In this document: piece after piece, positions 2,648 through 24,794 of the stretch
How positions within the stretch are numbered: the stretch's first letter is position 1
Layout of the letters: the number at the start of each line of letters is the position of its first letter
Virus record (IMG/VR): IMGVR_UViG_3300037439_000017
Location: 1 to 35,820 of that record
Strand: one strand, 5' to 3'
Source of the DNA: a virus
Lineage: Duplodnaviria > Caudoviricetes
DNA length: 35,820 nt
Translations under genes and position numbers: made by a program
The notes under the pieces: generated by a model
Seen by the model: only the letters and a program-made list of their open reading frames with translations
Database searches by the model: none
Told to the model about the DNA's origin: nothing

Positions 2648-3432
2648 GCGGCCTCCAGCAGTTGCGGCACGATCTCGCGCACGTCGTGCAATCCTGCCGC
2701 TTGCTCGCGCCAGCCGCCCTTGCCGATCACGCCTCGGACAGCAGCGGCCACCAGTTCAGGCGTTGGCACCACGCCGCCGCGACCGCTGTAGTTCCGGATC
2801 ATGGATAGTGCGCTCACATCGAGCAGCGGCCCTTGGTACGCGCTGCGGTGGTCGCAGATCACGAACGGCACTCCACACGCCATCGCCTCCACAGCGGCCC
2901 TGCCTGACGCCAAGACGCACGCCGCGTTCCGCAGCACATCGCGTGCCTGCTGCGGCGAGACGCCGCGCAGATGGCGATACGGAAGACCAAGCGTGGCAGC
3001 TACGTCCGACAACCAGGCAAGGCCGCCGCGGTAGCTGTATCGCACCAGTCCTGCCGAGCCGTCGCCGCCCGGGGACCAGAACTGAAGGTCGATCGGCTGG
3101 CGAATGATCGGGCCGTCACCACCCCAGTATTCGCGGACGCCCTCACTGGTGAAGACGACCGGCATATCCTCCGGCGGGCACTCCGGATCGATGATGCCGT
3201 GCGAGACGGCCATCACCTGATCGCAGGACGCCACCGCCGCTTCTGTGAGGCGGTGATTGGCGAGGATTCCCAGGTCGAACCGTCCGGCAGGCAGCGACCA
3301 CTCCGGGCACCACAGCACCGCGTCATGACCGATGCGCCGTAGTTCGGCCGCAACCGTCGCCACCCACGACTGCACCCCGCCGATCTCGCGCGACGCGCCA
3401 GGCACGTACTTCGCCGCCAGCAGGATCCTCAC
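2632..3432 (-). CDS. GT-B fold (GT4-like) glycosyltransferase
   Basis: GTG at 3432 (GTGA overlap); RILL..GGVQSWVATVAAELRRIGHD and GRAAVEAMACGVP motifs. Confidence 0.8.
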   Translation of the reverse strand: MRILLAAKYVPGASREIGGVQSWVATVAAELRRIGHDAVLWCPEWSLPAGRFDLGILANHRLTEAAVASCDQVMAVSHGIIDPECPPEDMPVVFTSEGVREYWGGDGPIIRQPIDLQFWSPGGDGSAGLVRYSYRGGLAWLSDVAATLGLPYRHLRGVSPQQARDVLRNAACVLASGRAAVEAMACGVPFVICDHRSAYQGPLLDVSALSMIRNYSGRGGVVPTPELVAAAVRGVIGKGGWREQAAGLHDVREIVPQLLEAACCTC

Positions 3433-4025
3433 CGCAGCGCCCTCGCGAGCGGCGCGCGCGGGAAGCACGTCAGCGCCGTCCCTTCGGTGGCGTTGACCAC
3501 GCTGACCCCCTCGGCCCGCAGGTCAAACGCCATGGCCTGGAACTCCGTGCGCCACACCGAGATATGCGACTTCGGCGCGCTCAGCATCGGCCTTCCCTTG
3601 ATGTCGTGATGCTCGCCATGCCAGTGACCGCCGTCTTGCCGGTGCATGTCGAATCCCAGAAGGACAATGCGCTTCGCACCGAAGTGCCAAGCCAGATTGA
3701 CCGCCTGGAAGCCGCTGTTGCCGCCGGTGTGCACGTAACCACGTTCCCGGCAGAGTCCTTTGCCTTCACGCTTGCGCACCAGATGCAGGCGGAACTTCAT
3801 GGCCGCCGCTTCGTCGCGCGTCCACCGCTCGCCCTGAAAGCCGCAGACCTCGTCGCCGTAGCGATCCCACCAGCCGCTGTCGCCGGCATACATCGCCGCC
3901 GCCCATGGTGCGAGCTGCCACGTGTTGTTCACGGTCATCACGTTCCACGACCGGAGCTTGCGAATTTCGGACACATCGACCCGCGCCATGCTCGGGCCGC
4001 TCGCGCAGATGATCCACTTGCTCAC
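3429..4025 (-). CDS. DUF115/Maf-like glycosyltransferase-like protein, paralog 1
   Basis: CASGPS, VNNTWQLAPWA..YAGD..WW, GGNSGFQAVNLA..GAKRIVLLGFDM, HWH; clearly paralogous to 766-1344. Confidence 0.65.
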   Translation of the reverse strand: MSKWIICASGPSMARVDVSEIRKLRSWNVMTVNNTWQLAPWAAAMYAGDSGWWDRYGDEVCGFQGERWTRDEAAAMKFRLHLVRKREGKGLCRERGYVHTGGNSGFQAVNLAWHFGAKRIVLLGFDMHRQDGGHWHGEHHDIKGRPMLSAPKSHISVWRTEFQAMAFDLRAEGVSVVNATEGTALTCFPRAPLARALR

Positions 4026-8749: not shown

Positions 8750-9952
8750 TTACTTACCTCCCGTCGCGGCGGCCTTCGGGCCGGCAGCGAGTGCGTCGAC
8801 GCTGGCCTGGTAGCCGTTGTCGTTGATGGGCGTCACCGAGGCGCTGCGGAGCACCCGGTTGACCGGATCCTTCTTGGCGTCCTCGACGAGGATGTCGAAG
8901 CGGGCGTCGACGTACGCCTGCGGCTTGTCCTTGATGGCCGCATCGCCGAGCTTCGCGACCACGGCAGCCTTGCGGATGTCGTCGTCGGTCTTGCCGGAGT
9001 AGTCGGCGTCGTGGACGGCCTTCGCCGTGGCGATCAGGTCGGCGCGCGCTTTGACACGCTGGTCGAGCTGCTCGTCGCTGAGCACCTTGCCCTTCAGGCT
9101 GTCGATCTCGGCATCCTTCTTGGCGATGGTGGCGTCCCGGTCCGCAAGCGCGGTCTGGTGCTTCGTTGCCGCATCGGTCAGGGCGGTGGAGCCGTCCTGT
9201 ACCTGCTGCTGCAGCTTGGCGATGGCCTGGGCTCCCGCGTCGGTGGTTTCGACGGACAGCCCATCGACCATGACGGTCTTGGTCTTGATGGTGTCGCTCA
9301 TGGTGAGTTTCCTCGGTGGTGGGTTGTCGTCGCCGATACGAAGTTGATCCCCACCGCGCGCCCGGTCGACTAGCGCGAGGTGTTGTGCTGAAACTGGTGT
9401 TGCGCCCCAGTGACTCTTGCTGTCACCGATGCGAAGTTCTGATCCTCCGCGGGCTGCGGCGACGATGGCGACGTGGTTTTGCTTCAGGTCGGTCATGTAG
9501 GCGTCGTACGGCTCCCCCGCAGGGGAAACGCCGTCGCTGAAGACCAGCTCGGCGCTGTATCCGGCAGAAAGCTCACGGGTGCCGCGGTTGACCTCGTCGA
9601 TGGCCTTCTGGTCGCGCAACATCATCGGAACGCGGACGAATTCACCGTCGCGCATGACTTCATCGCCGACCTCGCCGCGCGCCAGGTCCTTCCAATTGGA
9701 CGCAGTCACGCCTGCCTTCGGGTGTCCGACCGTGATCGGAACGCCAGCGTACGAAGCCATCGCGTCCTGTCGGAATACCTCGTCCGCAGGTCGGAATACC
9801 CTGACGACGTGCATTTCCGGATGACCGATTTCGTCACCGAGGTAAAGCTGGACGTTCTCGGCGCGCGCGACCCGTGCGTTGAACACCGCATAGCCCTCAG
9901 CGGTCTTTCGGATGGACGCCTTGTCCACCGCGACCGTATCGATGAATTGCAT
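8750..9952 (-). CDS. Prohead protease-scaffold (DUF2213 family)
   Basis: ATG at 9952 (GAGG RBS); PITVGHP, ELSAGY, NHVAIV..ARGG..LRIGD motifs; coiled-coil C-terminus. Confidence 0.88.
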   Translation of the reverse strand: MQFIDTVAVDKASIRKTAEGYAVFNARVARAENVQLYLGDEIGHPEMHVVRVFRPADEVFRQDAMASYAGVPITVGHPKAGVTASNWKDLARGEVGDEVMRDGEFVRVPMMLRDQKAIDEVNRGTRELSAGYSAELVFSDGVSPAGEPYDAYMTDLKQNHVAIVAAARGGSELRIGDSKSHWGATPVSAQHLALVDRARGGDQLRIGDDNPPPRKLTMSDTIKTKTVMVDGLSVETTDAGAQAIAKLQQQVQDGSTALTDAATKHQTALADRDATIAKKDAEIDSLKGKVLSDEQLDQRVKARADLIATAKAVHDADYSGKTDDDIRKAAVVAKLGDAAIKDKPQAYVDARFDILVEDAKKDPVNRVLRSASVTPINDNGYQASVDALAAGPKAAATGGK

Positions 9953-9977: not shown

Positions 9978-10012
9978 AAAAGAAAAGGGCACCCGGTTGG
10001 GCGCCCCTTCTT
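9978..10012 (-). terminator. Intrinsic terminator closing the RAMP/array cassette
   Basis: Minus strand AAGGGGCGCCC-AACC-GGGTGCCCTTT followed by TCTTTT; G-U pairs form only on the minus strand. Confidence 0.7.
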
Positions 10013-10023
10013 GTCGTTTTCGA

Positions 10024-10081
10024 CCCTTGCTAAGCCATACCCGGCCATACCAAGCACAGCCCTGCTGCGCCCTACCGTGCC
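10024..10081 (-). repeat. GGY-NN pentamer array 2 (11 units plus GGG), candidate guide RNA
   Basis: Minus strand: GGC AC GGT AG GGC GC AGC AG GGC TG TGC TT GGT AT GGC CG GGT AT GGC TT AGC AA GGG. Confidence 0.9.
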
Positions 10082-10099
10082 GACTGGCGCTTACCGCAC

Positions 10100-10127
10100 C
10101 GCAATGGATGGCACGCCACCCATTACG
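10100..10127 (-). other. Long hairpin separating the two pentamer arrays
   Basis: Minus strand CGTAATGGGTGGC-GT-GCCATCCATTGCG; two G-U pairs that would be A-C mismatches on the plus strand. Confidence 0.8.
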
Positions 10128-10137
10128 CTGTTGTCAG

Positions 10138-10190
10138 CCCTTGCTACGTCGCGCCGCGCCAAGCCGTGCCTAGCCCCGCTCGGCTGTGCC
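10138..10190 (-). repeat. GGY-NN pentamer array 1 (10 units plus GGG), candidate guide RNA
   Basis: Minus strand: GGC AC AGC CG AGC GG GGC TA GGC AC GGC TT GGC GC GGC GC GAC GT AGC AA GGG. Confidence 0.88.
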
Positions 10191-10325
10191 GTGGTTCAAG
10201 CAACTGCGAAGCCGTTGGACATCCGCCGACCAGAGAAGGCAAACCAGCAGCAGGACCATGCAAGCGATGACGCCGGCTAGCTGAAGCAATACCGGTTTGC
10301 TAGTCCTGTCGATGAAGGACTTCAC
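10170..10325 (-). CDS. Possible 51-aa single-TM peptide (not in ORF track)
   Basis: GTG with AAGGA RBS; MKSFIDRTSKPVLLQLAGVIACMVLLLVCLLWSADVQRLRSCLNHGTAERG; stop codon lies inside array 1. Confidence 0.4.
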   Translation of the reverse strand: MKSFIDRTSKPVLLQLAGVIACMVLLLVCLLWSADVQRLRSCLNHGTAERG

Positions 10326-10328
10326 TGG

Positions 10329-10832
10329 TCAATCCTTCGCGGATTCATTCGTCTCCGGCTTCGCCAGAAACCGTTTGCGCTTTGCGCGCTTCGCGCTTTC
10401 CTCAAGGAACGAGAGCCGCGCCAGAGCATCGGCGTTCTTCCTCGCTTCCTCGTGGCTCAACGCACCGCGATCGATGAAGCTCAGCCGTCGCCCCATCTTC
10501 CGAAGCTCCGACTTCACACGCTTCATGCCGTGTTCCATCGCGTATTCCGTTTGCTTATCCGGCTCCACGATCATGTAGCCCTGCCCCGGTACGGCCTTCA
10601 GGCACATGTTGCGTTCTTCTAGCAGGTGGTTTGCCAACGCATCAACCTGCGCAAGCAGGGACAACCGCCATTCCTCGTACTCGTCAACCGTGATTCTGCC
10701 GGTCGGCTTCGGCAAAAGGAGCGCCGCTTGTAGCTCATCGTGCGGCACCACGTCGCCGTAGGTGTACCGACCTGCGAACAGTTCGGCGGCAGCGTTGCGC
10801 CATGCCGGCAGCAGATGGACCGCGCCGCTCAC
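10329..10832 (-). CDS. RAMP-associated accessory protein, winged-helix-like N-terminus plus helical basic C-terminus
   Basis: GTGA-coupled to the RAMP gene; GDVVPHDEL..., LKAVPGQGYMIV wing-like motif; basic tail. Confidence 0.7.
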   Translation of the reverse strand: MSGAVHLLPAWRNAAAELFAGRYTYGDVVPHDELQAALLLPKPTGRITVDEYEEWRLSLLAQVDALANHLLEERNMCLKAVPGQGYMIVEPDKQTEYAMEHGMKRVKSELRKMGRRLSFIDRGALSHEEARKNADALARLSFLEESAKRAKRKRFLAKPETNESAKD

Positions 10833-11398
10833 GACAGAACCTCAACGCCGAACCGGCCGAAACGCGGGCGGTAGGTGCCGATGCCTATGCGCCGGCCGGC
10901 TTCTTCCACTACCCGCACAAGGTCGCCCTTATCGATCACGTCCTCCATGAACTCGATATCGAACTGCGTTGCCCACGACAGGAAGATCGGCCTGCAACGC
11001 ATGATCTTCTTGCCGCCGACGTTTACCCCGCGAACATCGGCGTGCTTGTTGCCCTGCCACAGCTTTTCCTTCTTACGCGGGCCGTCATATTCCAGCTTGT
11101 GCTTGTCGTCCACGACCCGCACGGCTTGCTTGATGGTCTTGCCTAGCCGGTGAATCTTGCCGGCCTCTGCAATGCAGCCCTCGATGTTCAGCGCCGGGAT
11201 GTAGGGGCCGATCTGATCGTCGAAGTACATGCCGGCCGACCACTCCGACTCCATCAGCCAGAGGTAATCGTCCTCGGACTTCTTCTTCTTGCCGCTGACC
11301 GCCTTGTGAGCCTTGGTCAGTTCGTGCAAGGGGTTCGCCAGGGTCTCCGCCTGCATCAACAGGGGAGCGTTTCCGGTAATGCGGAACGTGATGTTCAT
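10829..11398 (-). CDS. Stand-alone Cas7/Csm3-like RAMP superfamily protein
   Basis: RAMP hallmarks: N-terminal strand ITFRITGNAPLLM, PYIPALNIEGCI (cf. PxIPGSSxKG), RPIF..W, C-terminal Gly-rich loop GRRIGIGTYRPRFGRFGV; GAGG RBS. Confidence 0.8.
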   Translation of the reverse strand: MNITFRITGNAPLLMQAETLANPLHELTKAHKAVSGKKKKSEDDYLWLMESEWSAGMYFDDQIGPYIPALNIEGCIAEAGKIHRLGKTIKQAVRVVDDKHKLEYDGPRKKEKLWQGNKHADVRGVNVGGKKIMRCRPIFLSWATQFDIEFMEDVIDKGDLVRVVEEAGRRIGIGTYRPRFGRFGVEVLS

Positions 11399-11454
11399 CG
11401 GTAAGCCTCAGTTCGTGGCCTGCTGTTTGGCGGTATGCCTAGCGCCACGCACCG

Positions 11455-11483
11455 AATATATTACCGTTATCGGATGTTTTCAA
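11455..11483 (-). promoter_or_regulatory. Sigma70-type promoter for the RAMP operon
   Basis: Minus strand TTGAAA-17 bp-TATATT in an AT-rich patch about 55 nt upstream of the RAMP ATG. Confidence 0.7.
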
Positions 11484-11548
11484 TCCTTTTAAGGGCTGTA
11501 CTATCATGATGTCGGGCTGGAATAACCCTCATCAGCGAGAATGCGACA

Positions 11549-11770
11549 ATGTCCACCATGCTCAGCGGCTCCAAACTACGCGCCATCCGATCCCTGAAGG
11601 GGATGACCCAAGCTCAGCTTGCGGAGGCCTCAGGGGTCTCCCCCACCGCCATCACCGAGTACGAAAAAGGCAAGCGCGACCTACGCGCCGACACCATTCG
11701 GAAGCTCTGCGAAGCGCTCGGCGTGCAGGTCAAGTACATCGTGGACGGGACCGAGATCACCGGCCCTTAG
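11549..11770 (+). CDS. XRE-family HTH regulator, divergent from the RAMP operon
   Basis: LRAIRSLKGMTQAQLAEASGVSPTAITEYEKGKRD..L..ALGV. Confidence 0.9.
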   Translation: MSTMLSGSKLRAIRSLKGMTQAQLAEASGVSPTAITEYEKGKRDLRADTIRKLCEALGVQVKYIVDGTEITGP

Positions 11771-11954
11771 CCTTGCGCTTCGCCTTCCGCTTCTTCCTGA
11801 GTTTCGCAGCGTAGTCATCCATTTCCTTGGTCGCTGTCGCCATGCCCTTTAGGGCTGCATTCAGCTTGGTCTGCGCGGATAGCGCATCCAGCTTCCGTGT
11901 CCCCTCTGCCAGCTGGCTCGAATCCACGCGATAGCCGAGGTCGTTGATATTCAT
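11757..11954 (-). CDS. Small protein resembling a tape-measure N-terminus with a basic tail (possible remnant)
   Basis: MNINDLGYRVDSSQLAEGTRKLDAL..; GGAG RBS. Confidence 0.5.
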   Translation of the reverse strand: MNINDLGYRVDSSQLAEGTRKLDALSAQTKLNAALKGMATATKEMDDYAAKLRKKRKAKRKAKGR

Positions 11955-11967
11955 TTAGTCGCTTCTC

Positions 11968-13413
11968 CTAGACCTTGCCCGTGAATGGGGCAATATCACT
12001 CTCCGTGAACGTGTGGATCGGTGCTGAATCTTTGGCCGCGATCCGCTCTGCCTCGATCTCTTCGGGCGTCTTGCCGGTCGTCAGCGAGGCCACATCATCT
12101 TCGGTCGTGTCCTCACCATCTGGATTCGCGGCCTTCCACTCATCCATCGACTGCTCGAGGCCAGGCGCGACGCCCGCTTCAGTGAGCATCGTCACCGCGA
12201 CCTCGCTCATCACGTCGTCTGGGATCAGGCCGGTCTCGCCGATCGACTTGATCGTCTCGGCGGTGATCTTGCCGATGTCGGCGCGTTCCTTATCCGTGCT
12301 CTGCCAGAGGCTGGCCCAGTTGTAGAACAGTTCCGGCGGGCGCGTGCCCAGTGCAGATCGGATCAGGCACTCGTCGAAGATGGCGAGCGCCGGCGTCATC
12401 GATAGCTGCTGCATCGCGCTGATGCGGTCGTAGTAGTTGCGGATGTCGGCATCGCCGGTCGCATTCAGACCTGCAGGGGCTTGCCCGAGCAGGCGCGTGA
12501 CCGGGATGTCGGCCGCACCGGACACCAGCTGCATGAAGGCCAGCATGATGTTCGTCAGCTCGCCGAAGGTCGCGGTCTTCTGCTCGTACTCTTCCTCGGA
12601 GTCGAGGATCAGGCAGCCGTTGATGCCCTTGGCCGTCGCCGCCAGGGTCAACCGCTCGATGACCTGCTGCTCGTACGCCGTACCGCCGCCCTGCAGCTTC
12701 TCCATCAGCTTCGGGATTTTGATCACGTCGATCTTCGCTTCGAACACCAGCGAGGCGATGTTCGCCGCGGTGCCGTCGGCTTGCTTGATCGTCTGCAGGA
12801 TCGCGAGCAGGACCGGGTCGCCCCAGCCGCGTTCGGCTCCGGTGGCCCGCTCCGGATCAGGATGCAACGCGCCCTGGAAGATGATCAGCCGCGAGGGATG
12901 GATGTCGACTTGGCCGGTCTGGCTGGTGATCGTGTATTCCTTCGGCTTGCCGTAGGCCTCAGATTCCGGGTTGGTCTCGGTCTCGCCGGCCTGCAGCACG
13001 CGGCGCGTCAGCACGTTGAGGTGCTTGATGCCGCCTTTCGCGATCGACTCCGGGTTCAGCGGCTTCGTCGGATCGGAGTCACCGGTACCGATGTAGATCG
13101 CAGCACCACCGAACAAGCGCGCCTTGGTCAGCGCTTCGAGCACCTTGGCCTGCAGCCCCAGCCGTGTCTCCTCGGCCTCGACATCGCTGATCTCGTCGCC
13201 ATCGGCCTGCCAGTTCCGCCACTTGCGGCAGGCATCGAGCGCCGGGATGTCGATGATCTTCCGCGGCAGCCACGCACCACGGTAGGCGTTGAGCAGCTGA
13301 TCCTCGGGCAGGCACGGCACGGCGTAGTAGCTGCTGGCCGCCTTGTCGCGAGGCGTGTTGAGGTTGGCGACCAGGTTGCGCAACCCGTCGCCGATCTTGT
13401 GGACAACGCCCAT
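11968..13413 (-). CDS. Portal protein (DUF1073 family)
   Basis: Follows TerL; W..RKIIDIPA.D..R.W, ARLFGGA, IHPSRL, SGAADIP.TRLLG.AP.GLNATG..D..NYYD motifs. Confidence 0.9.
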   Translation of the reverse strand: MGVVHKIGDGLRNLVANLNTPRDKAASSYYAVPCLPEDQLLNAYRGAWLPRKIIDIPALDACRKWRNWQADGDEISDVEAEETRLGLQAKVLEALTKARLFGGAAIYIGTGDSDPTKPLNPESIAKGGIKHLNVLTRRVLQAGETETNPESEAYGKPKEYTITSQTGQVDIHPSRLIIFQGALHPDPERATGAERGWGDPVLLAILQTIKQADGTAANIASLVFEAKIDVIKIPKLMEKLQGGGTAYEQQVIERLTLAATAKGINGCLILDSEEEYEQKTATFGELTNIMLAFMQLVSGAADIPVTRLLGQAPAGLNATGDADIRNYYDRISAMQQLSMTPALAIFDECLIRSALGTRPPELFYNWASLWQSTDKERADIGKITAETIKSIGETGLIPDDVMSEVAVTMLTEAGVAPGLEQSMDEWKAANPDGEDTTEDDVASLTTGKTPEEIEAERIAAKDSAPIHTFTESDIAPFTGKV

Positions 13414-20118: not shown

Positions 20119-20489
20119 CACGCGGCCCGCCTGGTGTTCTTCGCGATCAGCGCGTGCTGTTGCTGCATCAGAGATTCGTCATCGCCGAACACGGCATGGA
20201 ACGGCACGCTGCCTTCGGATAGCGCGGGCCCGAGCAACCGGCGATGGGTGCCGTGATTCCAGCCAGCAACGATCAGGCGGCCGGAGTGATGCCATTTGCA
20301 TAACCCGACGGTGTGCAGGTGGCCGCGACGAATACCGCCCGACAGTAGGTGATGCGCGTCCACAACCGAACCATCCGGATCGTGTTCGTAGCCGCGCGCG
20401 ATGCAGCACAGGCAGCCGAGTCGCTTCACGGTGGTGACCCACTCGCGTTCGGCTTTCGTCATGTTCCCCGTGGAACGACCCACCCTCAC
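20118..20489 (-). CDS. Ref-like recombination enhancement nuclease (HNH-type)
   Basis: LGCLCC, AHH..GG.R.GH..T..LC.WHH, F...FG.D..L motifs. Confidence 0.75.
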   Translation of the reverse strand: MRVGRSTGNMTKAEREWVTTVKRLGCLCCIARGYEHDPDGSVVDAHHLLSGGIRRGHLHTVGLCKWHHSGRLIVAGWNHGTHRRLLGPALSEGSVPFHAVFGDDESLMQQQHALIAKNTRRAA

Positions 20490-21007
20490 AGCAAGCCTCC
20501 GGGATGCAGCGACCTCTTCGCTTGAACATAGGCCGCATGGGCTTCTTCAGCGGTGTCATATGTTCCGAGCGCCATCTTCTTTCGGCCGGCACAAATGAAA
20601 GCCCGGAAGCGCCGCCCTTCGGCAACGACCCCAAGTAGGCCTACACGGCTGCGAGAAGTGGCGCTTCGAAGGTTCTGCGCGTTGCACGCGTTGTCCGCAA
20701 GGCGAAGGTTCTTAATTCGGTTGTCAGCTCGCAACCCGTTCTTGTGGTCGACCTCGACCCCAGCGTCGATTGCGCCATGTACGAACATCCACGCTAGCCG
20801 GTGAGCCAGATATACGCGGGCTTCAAGTCGGATAGCTGTATATCCATCTTGATTTGGCGAGCCTGCCTCGCTCCCGGCGACAGCCCTGCCGTTACGTGTT
20901 TCTCGCCAAAAGAATTTTCCTGTTTCCGCATCGTACCGAAGCATCCGCTTTGCAAATTCTTGCAATGACTCGCCCGCAAGCGGCTTGCTTGCCTTATATG
21001 GGTTCAC
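20486..21007 (-). CDS. HNH homing endonuclease with AP2-like domain
   Basis: GTG at 21007; YD.ETG.F.W, AHRLAW, VDHKNG.R.DNRI.NLR, LG.YDTAEEA..AY; slightly lower GC. Confidence 0.88.
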   Translation of the reverse strand: MNPYKASKPLAGESLQEFAKRMLRYDAETGKFFWRETRNGRAVAGSEAGSPNQDGYTAIRLEARVYLAHRLAWMFVHGAIDAGVEVDHKNGLRADNRIKNLRLADNACNAQNLRSATSRSRVGLLGVVAEGRRFRAFICAGRKKMALGTYDTAEEAHAAYVQAKRSLHPGGLL

Positions 21008-21555
21008 GCCGCACCATCCGGCTTCTGGATAATCAACTCCACTTCCTCGCGGCTCGCAGCGCTCAGCCCGCCGAACACTTCCCGGCGCAGCCACCCGATC
21101 CAGCCACCCTCGCCGTTGCCGCCGTCCCACAGTTCGTTGAATCGACCCTCGTCCACGTCTGAGAAGTTCAGCGATTCCGCTTCGGTGCGCGTCAGCTTGC
21201 CCACGCCGGGAATGTCGTAGTCGACTGTCTCGCAACCGATGCCCGACAGCTCCTGCAGCTTCTTCAGCGCGTCGTGCATGCCGAGTCCGGAGAACTGCTC
21301 CACGTTGTCTGCGAGCCAGCCTGCGAGGACGTGAGCCTTCCGGTAGAACATCGGATTCCGGTCCTGCCGCAGCGTCGCGCGCAGCATCTTGCCGGTGTTG
21401 AACTTGCGCTCGCGCATCGAGCGGCGATCGATGGGGTGATCCGGCACAAGCGCGCCGACGATTTCTCCGGTCTCGGGAATCATCACCTTCATCACGGTCA
21501 CGCGGATGTCGCGTGCGCGGAGCTTGGCGCGCGCCTTCTGCAGTGCGGTGGTCAC
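21004..21555 (-). CDS. DUF1367/NinB-like protein
   Basis: RNPMFYRK and SLNF..VDE..F..L motifs; nin-region position. Confidence 0.55.
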   Translation of the reverse strand: MTTALQKARAKLRARDIRVTVMKVMIPETGEIVGALVPDHPIDRRSMRERKFNTGKMLRATLRQDRNPMFYRKAHVLAGWLADNVEQFSGLGMHDALKKLQELSGIGCETVDYDIPGVGKLTRTEAESLNFSDVDEGRFNELWDGGNGEGGWIGWLRREVFGGLSAASREEVELIIQKPDGAA

Positions 21556-23030
21556 CGATCACGCCCTGCAGCGCGGTCGCGTCCGCTTGGCGCTGGATCG
21601 TCGAAGCCGTCCTCGCCCGCTGCGCTCTCGGGCTTCTTCGTCTTGTAGTTCGGCCGCGGCCCGAAGTAGTCGGCGAAGTAGCTGCATTCGAGATGGTGGC
21701 GCAGGTATGCGGTTCCGGTTGGGCCGTTGCGCTGCTTGCCGATGATGAACTCGGCAACGCCAGGCGCACCGCTCAGGTCCTTCGTGTAGTAGTCGTCTCG
21801 GTACACGAACGCCACGATGTCCGCGTCCTGCTCAATTGCACCGGACTCGCGCAGATCCGCCATCGTCGGGCGCTTGTCGGTGCGGCCTTCCAGAGACCGG
21901 TTCAACTGCGACAGTCCGATCACCGGGCAGTGCAGCGTCTTTGCCATCAACTTGCAGCGCCGGCTGATCTTCGTCATTTCGTCGTAGCGCTTTTCGTCGC
22001 GCCGGCCGTCGCCGCTGATCAGCTGCAGGTAATCGATGACGATCAGGCCCAAGCCCCCGGGCACCTTTGCGTGCATGCGCGATGCGCGTGCTTCGATGGC
22101 GTCAATCGTCAGGCTCGCGGTGTCGTCGATCGCGATCGACAACGCTCGCGAGTCCTTGTACGCGCCGTTGATCGCCGACCAGTCTTCCGGAGTGAGTGCT
22201 GCCTTCTGCCGCATCCGTGCGTTGTCGACGCGCGCGCGCCTGGACAGGAGGCGAACGCCAAGCTGCTTCTTGCTCATCTCCAGCGAGAACACGGCGACGT
22301 TCCGCTCGTGGTGGCTGGCCGCGTGGTCTGCGAACTCCAGCCCCGTCACTGTCTTGCCCATGCCTGGGCGGCCGGCGATCACCATGAAGTCGGTGTCCTC
22401 CAGACCCGGCAGTTTCGCGCGGACGTTCTCCCATGGCGGCGTCAGGCCGACCTCGATCGTTCCGGCATCGCGGGCGACGATCTCGTCCCACGCTTCGGTC
22501 ATCGCGCCGCGGAGCATGCACAAGCCCCCTGCCCGCGCGCCGCGCATGGTCAGGCTCGCCATCTTCGCCGCGCTGTGCGCGACGATCTGGTCGGCCTCAC
22601 GCCCTTCTGGCAGGAATCCGTCGTTCACAATCTCGGTGCCGACGGTGATCAGGCGCCGGAGCGTCGACTTGTCCGCCACGATCTGCGCGTAGTCGCGCAC
22701 GTTCGCCGGCCGCGGCGGTGCCTTCCATAGTTCGATCAGGTAGGCGCCGCCTTCGACTTGGTCCGCCTTGCCGTTGGACTCGAACCACTCGCCCACCGTC
22801 AACGCGTCGTACGCCTTGCCCTTTTCCTTGAGATCGAGGATGGCCGCGTAGATCAGCTGGTGATCGCGCCGGTAGAAGTCCTCGACTTGGATCAAGTCCG
22901 CAACATCGTCGATCGATTCCGGCGTCAGCATCAGCGTGCCCAGTACCGCCTGCTCAGCATCGATCGCCTGCGGCGGGATGCGCAGCTGCTCGATGCGGTC
23001 CTCGTGGCGCGGGGAACCGTCGGCGCTCAT
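21552..23030 (-). CDS. dnaB: Replicative DNA helicase, DnaB family
   Basis: PPQAIDAEQAVLG, AGRPGMGKT, FSLEM, VIDYLQL, LSQLNR, DLRESGAIEQDAD, KQRNGPTG. Confidence 0.96.
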   Translation of the reverse strand: MSADGSPRHEDRIEQLRIPPQAIDAEQAVLGTLMLTPESIDDVADLIQVEDFYRRDHQLIYAAILDLKEKGKAYDALTVGEWFESNGKADQVEGGAYLIELWKAPPRPANVRDYAQIVADKSTLRRLITVGTEIVNDGFLPEGREADQIVAHSAAKMASLTMRGARAGGLCMLRGAMTEAWDEIVARDAGTIEVGLTPPWENVRAKLPGLEDTDFMVIAGRPGMGKTVTGLEFADHAASHHERNVAVFSLEMSKKQLGVRLLSRRARVDNARMRQKAALTPEDWSAINGAYKDSRALSIAIDDTASLTIDAIEARASRMHAKVPGGLGLIVIDYLQLISGDGRRDEKRYDEMTKISRRCKLMAKTLHCPVIGLSQLNRSLEGRTDKRPTMADLRESGAIEQDADIVAFVYRDDYYTKDLSGAPGVAEFIIGKQRNGPTGTAYLRHHLECSYFADYFGPRPNYKTKKPESAAGEDGFDDPAPSGRDRAAGRDR

Positions 23031-23860
23031 GCGGCCTGGTCCTCTTTCGGCGCGCGCTCAGCGTCTCGTTCCCGCTTGAGCTGCACGCCGGCGGTCGTCA
23101 GGTCGCACTGGCCATCGCCCGGCATCCACCACAGGCGGAACCAGTTCCGGCGCACGCAGTTCTCGAACTTCTGCCGCCACCCGCGCTTGCCGGCCTGCGT
23201 GGTCTTCCCGTCGCGGTACTGCCGGACGAACTCGCGCCACGCCAACTCGAGGAAGTCGGTCGGAATCCCCGCAGTGGCAGCGAAGGCGAAAACAGCGTGT
23301 TCGAGGGGGATCAGCTTCTCGCCGTCCGTGCGACAGGCCTGGACGAAGTCGGCGTAGGTCATCCCCTTGGGCGACTTCGCCCGTTTCGGCTTGCCCTCCA
23401 CTGCTTGCCCCCTGGAAGGGGGTATGGGGGTTTCTTGATCTTGAAGAGAATCAGGAATCAGAGAATCAGGAATCAGAGAATCAGCCGGGCTCGTATCTGC
23501 CTTGGTTGTGTCTTGCACAGTGCTTGCACAGTGCTCGCCCGGTGCAGGTATGGTGCTTTTGGCCTCCTTTACATGCGGATTCTGGTGCTTGCACCATGCA
23601 AGAATCTGGATAAAGGCTTTGCCATCAACGGTGTAGCGAAGAATGAACCCGCCATCGTGCAGCGCCTGTAGTCCTGCACTGACATCGACAGGATCGGCAG
23701 GAAACACCTCCATTCGTATCTTTGTGGGGCGATCTTCGAGGCGTCCATCGCGGTCTGCCATCGTCCACAACCCCACGAACAGCAGCCGATATTCGAAAGC
23801 GAGTTCGACAAGTAGCTCGTTCTTGAAGAACCCCGGCTTGATATTGCGGGCTCGGCTCAT
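23027..23860 (-). CDS. Phage replication initiator (O-like)
   Basis: MSRARNIKPGFF.NE, LF.GLW..AD..GRL N-terminal domain; internal repeats; upstream of dnaB. Confidence 0.8.
   Translation of the reverse strand: MSRARNIKPGFFKNELLVELAFEYRLLFVGLWTMADRDGRLEDRPTKIRMEVFPADPVDVSAGLQALHDGGFILRYTVDGKAFIQILAWCKHQNPHVKEAKSTIPAPGEHCASTVQDTTKADTSPADSLIPDSLIPDSLQDQETPIPPSRGQAVEGKPKRAKSPKGMTYADFVQACRTDGEKLIPLEHAVFAFAATAGIPTDFLELAWREFVRQYRDGKTTQAGKRGWRQKFENCVRRNWFRLWWMPGDGQCDLTTAGVQLKRERDAERAPKEDQAA
23445..23556. repeat. Tandem repeats within the initiator gene (probable ori/iterons)
   Basis: (AGAGAATCAGGAATC)x2.7 at 23445-23484; 11-bp period CTTGCACAGTG CTTGCACAGTG CTCGCCCGGTG CAGGTATGGTG at 23512-23555. 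Confidence 0.65.
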
Positions 23861-24615
23861 TGGTAGCGGCCCTCGATCAGGTCGCTCATGTCGTCTTGCC
23901 AGTTGCGCCAGGAGCGTGCGTCTTTCGCTAGGGCCTTCAGGGTTTCGTCATCGGCGCCAGCCGCCCTCGCCTGCCTGAGCAGGGTGATTGCAATGCCTTC
24001 ATGGACGTAGTTGAGGCGGTTTCGCAGGATGCCCCTGGCGTACCGGAGGCCTGATTCATCGGGCTTGCTGCGGTAGTTGCAGATGCCGCCGAGCTTCGAG
24101 AACGCCAGCGTGGCGCTATCGCGATCAACTACAGCGGCGTACTGATCCTTGGCGATATCCATGCCTTCAAGCACTGCGGTCAGGCCAAACTCCCGAATCA
24201 ACTTTTTGAGGCTGGCCACTGCCGCATCGTTGGTGATCGCCCAGCCTGTGAATGTCTCGGCGAAGTGATCACGCGCCGCATCAAGCTGCAGTTGATCAAT
24301 CGTCTTCAGGCCCTTGCGCCAATCCAGCATCATTTTCAGCTGCTCACGACGCTCTGAGAGGTCCGCCAACTGCTGGCGCTGTTTGGACAGCGTGGCGTTG
24401 TCATCCAGTGGCGTGGCGCCCTTGCCGCTGTTGCAGTCCACGCAAGACGTGATGAGGTTCAGAGGATCGTTGTCGCCTCCGCGACTGACCGGGTCGACGT
24501 GATCAACGTGCAAAACAACGTCAGGGGCCTTGGATCCGCAGTACTGGCACATGAAGCTGTCGCGCTTGAATACCTCGAAGCGGACCTTCTTGCTGATCGC
24601 CTTTCTCTTGGCCAT
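23857..24615 (-). CDS. HNH endonuclease-domain protein
   Basis: ATG at 24615; RFEVFKRD.F.CQYCG, LHVDHV.P...GG.....NL.TSC..CN.GK. Confidence 0.85.
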   Translation of the reverse strand: MAKRKAISKKVRFEVFKRDSFMCQYCGSKAPDVVLHVDHVDPVSRGGDNDPLNLITSCVDCNSGKGATPLDDNATLSKQRQQLADLSERREQLKMMLDWRKGLKTIDQLQLDAARDHFAETFTGWAITNDAAVASLKKLIREFGLTAVLEGMDIAKDQYAAVVDRDSATLAFSKLGGICNYRSKPDESGLRYARGILRNRLNYVHEGIAITLLRQARAAGADDETLKALAKDARSWRNWQDDMSDLIEGRYQ

Positions 24616-24794
24616 TACGCGGCCAGCTCGATCGGCAACTGGGGCGAAGGCTGGCGCTTGGCCTCGTCCCGCGCGACCTGGCGGGCGTGGAGGATCTGGT
24701 ATTCCATGCGCTGCTCGGCGGTCGTCTCGCCGGACAGGCACTCTTCCCGGCAGCGGCGGAAGCGCTCGAGGACGATCTCGTCGCGGCGGCTCAT
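24615..24794 (-). CDS. Hypothetical protein
   Basis: ATG at 24794 (ATGA overlap); 59 aa. Confidence 0.55.
   Translation of the reverse strand: MSRRDEIVLERFRRCREECLSGETTAEQRMEYQILHARQVARDEAKRQPSPQLPIELAA

Follow-up and report, generated by a model that had tools for sequence, protein, structure and literature searches.

A 35,820-base virus record, IMGVR_UViG_3300037439_000017, was analysed over its whole length (the window). It carries a VIPR cassette with which the phage very probably silences rival elements through RNA-guided DNA binding, one guide RNA (guide 2) being directed at the head-protease gene of kin phages and the other (guide 1) at the terminase gene of likely satellites. Judged from its sequence, the locus belongs to the published VIPR class and most likely to type II. 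More tentatively, it may be a distinct, XRE-switched branch of that type, mobile between the structural operons of phages in the manner of a moron, marked by residues Q16/T175 of the Vipr protein and a three-hairpin spacer, and fighting on two fronts, against the protease of kin and against the terminase of undescribed satellites of 9-10 kb. An earlier note on this DNA had mentioned the name VIPR for similar loci and had raised the possibility of a new system; the name proved correct, and the system was already in print (2026; 10.64898/2026.04.26.720920).

A cassette within the late operon

The record has a G+C content of 64% and is about 73% complete. Its minus strand carries a late operon with terminases, portal, a DUF2213/phrog_530 protease, capsid, connectors and tail tube, and other genes of the window concern lysis and replication or encode a CI-like regulator and Erf/RecE-like proteins. 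From this gene content the phage is probably temperate. The VIPR cassette occupies 2 kb of the late operon between the portal gene (11968-13413) and the phage's own head-protease gene (8750-9952, minus strand), which starts 25 bases past the cassette terminator. Every part described in the earlier note, namely the promoter (11483-11455), the open reading frames, the arrays and the terminator of the minus-strand operon, and the divergent XRE gene, was found in its place.

A kin prophage, L107, whose proteins are 60% (terminase), 65% (portal), 51% (protease) and 71% (capsid) identical to those of the window phage, has the portal gene directly against the protease gene, and a search with the window Vipr as query found no Vipr in it; the cassette is therefore taken to be an insertion. 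The nearest named relatives of the window Vipr come from a Luteimonas MAG (88%) and from Xanthomonas (78%). In none of 17 related loci fetched, two of which are duplicates, was vipr flanked by a portal or protease match. Its own promoter, its own terminator and these differing flanks would fit a mobile, moron-like element. The terminator (9978-10012, minus strand) sits within the late operon just ahead of the head genes, so that late transcription must restart there or read through.

Several other features of the record were observed. A 65-codon ORF (11757-11954, minus strand) ends in a basic run, and its N-terminal 20 residues are similar to those with which a tape-measure-like protein of L107 begins (65% over 20 aa, E = 7e-5); it may be a remnant brought in with the cassette. 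Two phrog_4603 genes, annotated as alpha-2,3-sialyltransferase (766-1422 and 3429-4025, minus strand), lie with unannotated ORFs between the tail terminator and tail tube genes and form a second insert in the structural operon. The replication region contains two HNH endonuclease genes (20486-21769 and 23857-24741, minus strand).

Vipr, the accessory gene and control of expression

The first gene, vipr (10829-11398, minus strand), encodes a protein of 189 amino acids. The sole sequence match in the PDB at E values up to 10 was 36pp_D, entered as 'SUSP1 Vipr protein', over residues 4-189 (E = 1.3e-40). A model built with 89 sequences (pLDDT 93.8) had its best fold matches among Csm3/Cmr subunits (Foldseek E = 6e-6), and the comparison with Csm3 in VIA gave Z = 10.0 with an rmsd of 3.4 Å over 142 aligned residues. 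By sequence match and modelled fold the protein is thus Vipr, a single-RRM RAMP with thumb and G-loop, in line with the RAMP protein proposed earlier. The RNA/DNA-contacting residues K33, R138, W178 and R179 of SUSP1 correspond to K32, R136, Y176 and R177 in the window Vipr, which are kept in 88, 89, 88 and 89 of 89 aligned proteins, respectively.

SUSP1 residues H17 and D177 correspond to Q16 and T175 in the window, and the residues that read the first G of the repeat (G1) in SUSP1 and P. fulva (H17, D177/D175) are therefore absent. Q16 and T175 are each common to 62 of 63 close homologues; distant homologues have H at the first position in 22 of 26 cases and D or E at the second, also in 22 of 26. 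According to the part of the structural study available to us, H17 and D177 read the first G in SUSP1 and the exchange D177A abolishes silencing (10.64898/2026.04.26.720927). In the discovery paper H17/D177 is not a defining feature of VIPR, and looser repeats are admitted (10.64898/2026.04.26.720920). The idea that Q16/T175 goes with a more relaxed G1 was considered and for now rejected: with counts that are biased by the unit finder, G1 is present in 338 of 465 units (73%) in Q/T loci and in 49 of 64 (77%) in phage Moogle, which has H/D. G1 is near-invariant in LESphi2 and Medea1.

The second gene (10329-10832, minus strand) overlaps vipr and encodes 167 amino acids. Its product matches that of the gene next in line behind vipr in 120 phage records, and in tblastn searches it reached 27% identity in phage Moogle (E = 5e-14) and 33% in Medea1. 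We call it vap1-like on the strength of its position and its homology in phage Moogle, one of the SUSP1-like phages. In the model, a small alpha/beta domain at the N-terminus is accompanied by a helical hairpin. Of the coupled, winged-helix-like protein postulated before, the overlapping frame stands, and the winged helix is represented by weak matches to OmpR-type domains (best Foldseek E = 0.05). Two further attempts at a fold were discarded, since VIA matches were confined to the C-terminal helical hairpin with Z under 8 and Atlas returned unnamed viral clusters under 0.9.

Between this gene and array 1 lies an element that the earlier note had missed, a 51-codon ORF (10170-10325, minus strand) that encodes a hydrophobic stretch and runs into the array. 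Its status is doubtful: it belongs to no PHROG or Pfam family, has no entry in the protein collection searched and no homologue in 20 related loci. Most relatives begin the first array straight after vap; L001 carries a different, longer insert at this position.

The cassette appears to have its own control region. A sigma-70-like promoter, TTGAAA-17-TATATT (11455-11483, minus strand), agrees with the consensus at 10 of 12 positions, and most relatives have a TTGAC-like hexamer at the matching position. A divergent gene on the plus strand (11549-11770) encodes an XRE/HTH_3 regulator (Pfam HTH_3, E = 2.6e-17) and is likely to be the repressor of the cassette. An XRE homologue occupies the same place in all 12 loci (10 distinct) whose Vipr is at least 76% identical, and in none of five loci with 59-62% Vipr identity. 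Between -35 and -10 lies an imperfect palindrome (11462-11475), a candidate XRE operator with a 5-4-5 layout. Three of its five pairs form in the window and all five in 5 of 11 loci, two of these perfect loci showing compensatory change; the locus whose XRE has diverged furthest lacks the palindrome. The 5' leader of vipr contains a conserved hairpin (11415-11448, minus strand), for which RNAalifold predicted 10 pairs from 10 sequences; at five of these pairs both partners are changed, in a single sequence each time. Taken by itself the window hairpin folds no more stably than shuffled sequences (z = -0.5), and L003 is without it.

Guide arrays and their predicted targets

Two repeat tracts follow on the minus strand. 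vrRNA1 (10141-10190) consists of 10 units with the dinucleotides (NN) AC, CG, GG, TA, AC, TT, GC, GC, GT and (AA), and vrRNA2 (10027-10081) of 11 units with AC, AG, GC, AG, TG, TT, AT, CG, AT, TT and (AA). Over 10 units they score 26 and 28 of 30 scaffold positions; none of 300 dinucleotide shuffles of the complete window scored above 25 at any position, and two of them attained that value. A four-unit GGY pattern with at most one mismatch occurs 19 times in the window against 6.5 ± 2.9 expected, and ten of these matches, including all three perfect ones, fall in the two arrays, which are the sole such tracts in the window. The pentamer arrays claimed earlier are therefore real in their strict 5-nt period and looser in their triplet, which is an exact GGY in 14 of 21 units and AGC, GAC or TGC in the others. 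The expectation that neighbourhoods of RAMP homologues carry such arrays was borne out in 16 of the 17 related loci, the remaining contig stopping inside vipr.

Among 42 distinct guides NN is variable and all 16 values occur. The last NN is AA in 31 of the 42, compared with 56 of 423 other units, so the last AA unit is probably fixed; it is unmatched in both predicted targets. Each tract is followed by two bases and then by a 4-bp tetraloop hairpin, and between the arrays come a long variable and a short hairpin. In the window this tail and spacer (10082-10140, minus strand) comprises the tetraloop hairpin (10138-10127), the long hairpin (10126-10101) and a 5-bp hairpin (10100-10086), and it folds better than shuffles (z = -4.2). 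If the first hairpin is imposed, most of the 23 distinct spacers adopt the three-hairpin layout; folded freely, 8 of the 23 retain that hairpin, and in the window an alternative is favoured by 2 kcal/mol. The start of the tail is common to 43 distinct guides, with five stem variants, as found by a search that required pairing. No Rfam family matched the spacer or tail at gathering score. After array 2 the tail (9978-10026, minus strand) has a tetraloop hairpin (10024-10013) and an intrinsic terminator-like hairpin (10012-9978).

Related arrays were also seen in other settings. In a sister clade (L005, L006, L015-L017; 59-62% identity) the arrays lie upstream of vipr, there is no XRE gene and the tail is the same. 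L001 (4759-4808) and L004 (4413-4462), whose Vipr proteins are 82% and 78% identical to that of the window, share the last guide dinucleotides, and the guide they share has no exact match in IMG/VR. The cultured phages LESphi2 (Pseudomonas; L090, 1949-2400) and Medea1 (L091, 3565-3629) carry unannotated vipr genes with arrays and could be used as laboratory models.

It might be thought that the cassette is decaying or switched off, either because Q16/T175 binds GGY poorly or because the 51-codon ORF or a weak operator has broken expression. The loss of silencing in SUSP1 D177A, in the part of 10.64898/2026.04.26.720927 available to us, would agree with this, as would the presence of only two guides and an unconserved stretch of 140 nt ahead of array 1. 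However, the loci of the close homologues that share Q16 and T175 keep intact arrays, and in the window both genes are whole and both guides still fully decodable, which makes decay very improbable.

Guides were decoded according to 10.64898/2026.04.26.720920, each GGY being replaced by one wildcard (a 1-nt skip) and the last unit being omitted. With this rule, which the earlier note lacked, its proposal that the NN positions act as a guide is upheld, in that they decode to phage genes. Guide 2, a query of 10 NN (20 positions), had 69 exact matches in IMG/VR, representing 43 distinct strings. All 69 fall in one motif, [NK]IRINHLALV and then R[AG]G, whose codons are read antisense and whose wobble bases are the ones skipped. 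The five carrier proteins tested are all DUF2213/phrog_530 head proteases. Controls with a 2-nt skip or in reversed order found nothing in IMG/VR. The kin prophage L107 has an 18/20 site in its protease motif. The exact carriers span 37-68% GC, so most of them cannot share the host of the phage. A set of 401 genomes from the order of the Luteimonas relative contained no exact guide-2 site, and six sites with two mismatches against none for the control. One of the six, that of L107, is in the protease motif, and the other five were dismissed as lying in unrelated genes. The guides of relatives showed no excess of matches in related loci under the 1-nt skip over other skip lengths (39 guides in 371,778 bases; 37 guides in 266,567). 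Beside the guide-2 motif the window protease gene has a duplicated stretch (ARGGSELRIGD, ARGGDQLRIGD; about 9330-9500, minus strand), and PHROG reports two stretches.

Guide 1, a query of nine NN (18 positions), had three exact matches in IMG/VR (two of them 89-93% identical to each other, one 70%) and one in the 401 genomes. All four are sense to codons for TRGYTFAAV of phrog_2 large terminases, a motif that precedes the Walker B motif LADE. The reversed control had no match in IMG/VR, and with at most one mismatch the 401 genomes gave two sites (one real, one in an unrelated gene) against one for the reversed control. In a set of 20 terminase loci, two begin past the motif and were omitted; six of the 18 parsed match at 16 or more of 18 positions, two being the original matches, and the others at 13 or fewer, one row (L122) having been parsed wrongly. 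The earlier note had left open whether DNA or RNA is silenced. Having the same sense, guide 1 cannot pair with the terminase mRNA, which points to a DNA target, and one sense and one antisense guide are as expected for double-stranded DNA targets.

The elements that match guide 1 are small. L112 (9,398 bases) matches at 17 of 18 positions and L113 (9,819 bases) at 16, and both have direct terminal repeats and carry terminase, neck and tape-measure genes besides those for an integrase and a replication protein. None of the ORFs scanned (24 of 50 in L112, 28 of 52 in L113) matched a capsid or portal family, and the capsid family PF05065 was absent from all five records searched for it. On this gene content the 9-10 kb elements are likely to be satellites. 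An unannotated 245-aa ORF behind the terminase of L112 and L113 may nevertheless encode a capsid that has diverged, and remoter members of this terminase family adjoin a portal (L117). L094, L095, L111 and L114 are also small and carry an integrase or invertase, a replication gene, a phrog_2 large terminase, neck and tape measure; in these, too, neither capsid nor portal was detected. A search for helper-satellite homology between guide-1 elements and window proteins was without result at E = 1e-4, in a window that ends before the tape measure gene.

No self target was found in the window, where the best matches were 13/18 for guide 1 and 14/20 for guide 2. In the phage itself the guide-2 motif reads DLKQNHVAIV (9461-9490, minus strand); this copy matches at 12 of 20 NN positions and is not a predicted target. 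One could argue that the cassette tunes the late genes of its own phage and that guide 2 is a relic match to the own protease, which is adjacent and of the same family, the more so as a self target could lie beyond a record that is about 73% complete. But a match of 12/20 does not rise above the background in the window and falls well short of the 80% applied in the discovery paper (10.64898/2026.04.26.720920), and guide 1 reads phrog_2 terminases whereas the own terminase is phrog_38. Self-regulation is accordingly an explanation to which we give hardly any credence.

The decoded targets might also be chance matches to conserved motifs, in a true VIPR locus whose real targets are other phage or host genes. 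The IMG/VR controls are few (two for guide 2, one for guide 1), a single chance match to a conserved motif brings many matches together, and the 401 candidate-host genomes contain no exact guide-2 site. Yet both guides skip the wobble base and fall within genes for the phage head or for packaging, guide 2 reads the very family of the gene that adjoins the cassette, and all IMG/VR controls are empty. We consider chance improbable, and the protease of kin phages and the terminase of likely satellites are retained as the predicted targets.

Mode of action and relation to known systems

In published VIPR loci 9-16 YNNGG repeats stand in tandem next to vipr, their GGY conserved and their NN variable (10.64898/2026.04.26.720920); degenerate repeats are covered there and, in the accessible portion, in 10.64898/2026.10.21.760802. 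The window has 10 and 11 repeat units, 3' tails and a minimal locus with vap. The absence of cas genes noted before was also confirmed: the record gave no match to PF01867 (Cas1), and none of 48 window ORFs compared with PHROGs belonged to a cas family. The window resembles the type II systems of coliphage SUSP1 and a P. fulva prophage (10.64898/2026.04.26.720920) in its Vipr, which corresponds over the whole length, and in the vap1-like gene that follows. Its guides, too, are separate units of about 100 nt, each made of 10-11 GGY-NN repeats and then a structured 3' tail. Reading skips 1 nt, the wobble base; the predicted targets lie in other mobile elements and on either strand, and neither a self target nor a nuclease was found. 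Vipr also shares the RRM/RAMP fold, thumb and G-loop with the Cas7/Csm3/Cmr backbones of Class 1 CRISPR systems, but the identity is 10-16%, neither cas1 nor a repeat-spacer array was seen, and the guide is non-contiguous.

The window differs from SUSP1 and P. fulva in several respects. It has Q16/T175 where they have H17/D177 (structures in the available part of 10.64898/2026.04.26.720927; PDB 36pp), it has a divergent XRE gene and a promoter palindrome, and it has no upstream guide. It possesses a hairpin spacer where SUSP1 has a pseudoknot tail; the tail of the Pseudomonas phage Medea1 starts similarly to that of the window. Its predicted targets are a head protease and a terminase, whereas those of SUSP1 and P. 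fulva are recombinase or lysogeny regulators. The discovery main text (10.64898/2026.04.26.720920) contains no XRE, divergent, operator or terminase, and 'protease' as a reagent alone; the portion of the competition paper available to us (10.64898/2026.10.15.759431) contains no protease, Xanthomonas or hairpin, and terminase in the methods alone. The XRE gene with the promoter palindrome, Q16/T175 and the hairpin spacer did not turn up in the main texts searched, although the supplements (667 loci, tree) may hold the clade.

The guide-1 elements can be compared with two groups of satellites. In the part of 10.64898/2026.10.15.759431 available to us, SUSP1 VIPR acts against F5 satellites with a guide that reads a conserved coding motif at codon positions 1+2, as here. 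F5 satellites likewise have a tape measure and no capsid, but none of 150 has a terminase, which the guide-1 elements carry. The EPIP satellites of Mycolicibacterium, as far as the accessible part of PMC12822802 describes them, are also small and integrating, with tape measure and head-tail connector genes; the terminase described for them is the small one, whereas guide-1 elements have the large one. In the satellite literature searched, parts of it available only as excerpts, we found no description of capsid-less elements with a large terminase and a tape measure.

The cassette would act as follows. Its promoter would drive transcription, probably in the lysogen and governed by the XRE protein, and cutting of the transcript at the hairpin spacer would yield two guides, each about 110 nt long. 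As in SUSP1 and P. fulva, Vipr would form a filament on the guide, one subunit per pentamer, with GGY hidden and NN presented for pairing. The earlier note had anticipated this non-contiguous guide, and the proposal matches the mechanism in the part of 10.64898/2026.04.26.720927 available to us. Following the same work, NN would pair with double-stranded DNA, every third base being skipped, to give an R-loop triplex, and the bound complex would block transcription without cutting. Vap1 is needed in infection according to the SUSP1/P. fulva work (10.64898/2026.04.26.720920 and the accessible part of 10.64898/2026.04.26.720927). The predicted binding sites lie, for guide 2, in the head-protease gene of kin phages and, for guide 1, in the large-terminase gene of the likely satellites; a block within either gene might also starve the downstream head genes.

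As the class of system is known, the value of this locus lies in its detail: both guides can be read, and they provide two ready test sites. The XRE gene and the palindrome offer a first handle on the control of VIPR expression, and the Q16/T175 clade is a natural variant in the recognition of the first G, of use in developing a compact programmable silencer. Guide 2 would separate self from non-self without a PAM, the own allele differing at the protein level where kin match, and the small, capsid-less, terminase-bearing circles read by guide 1 may constitute an undescribed class of satellites.
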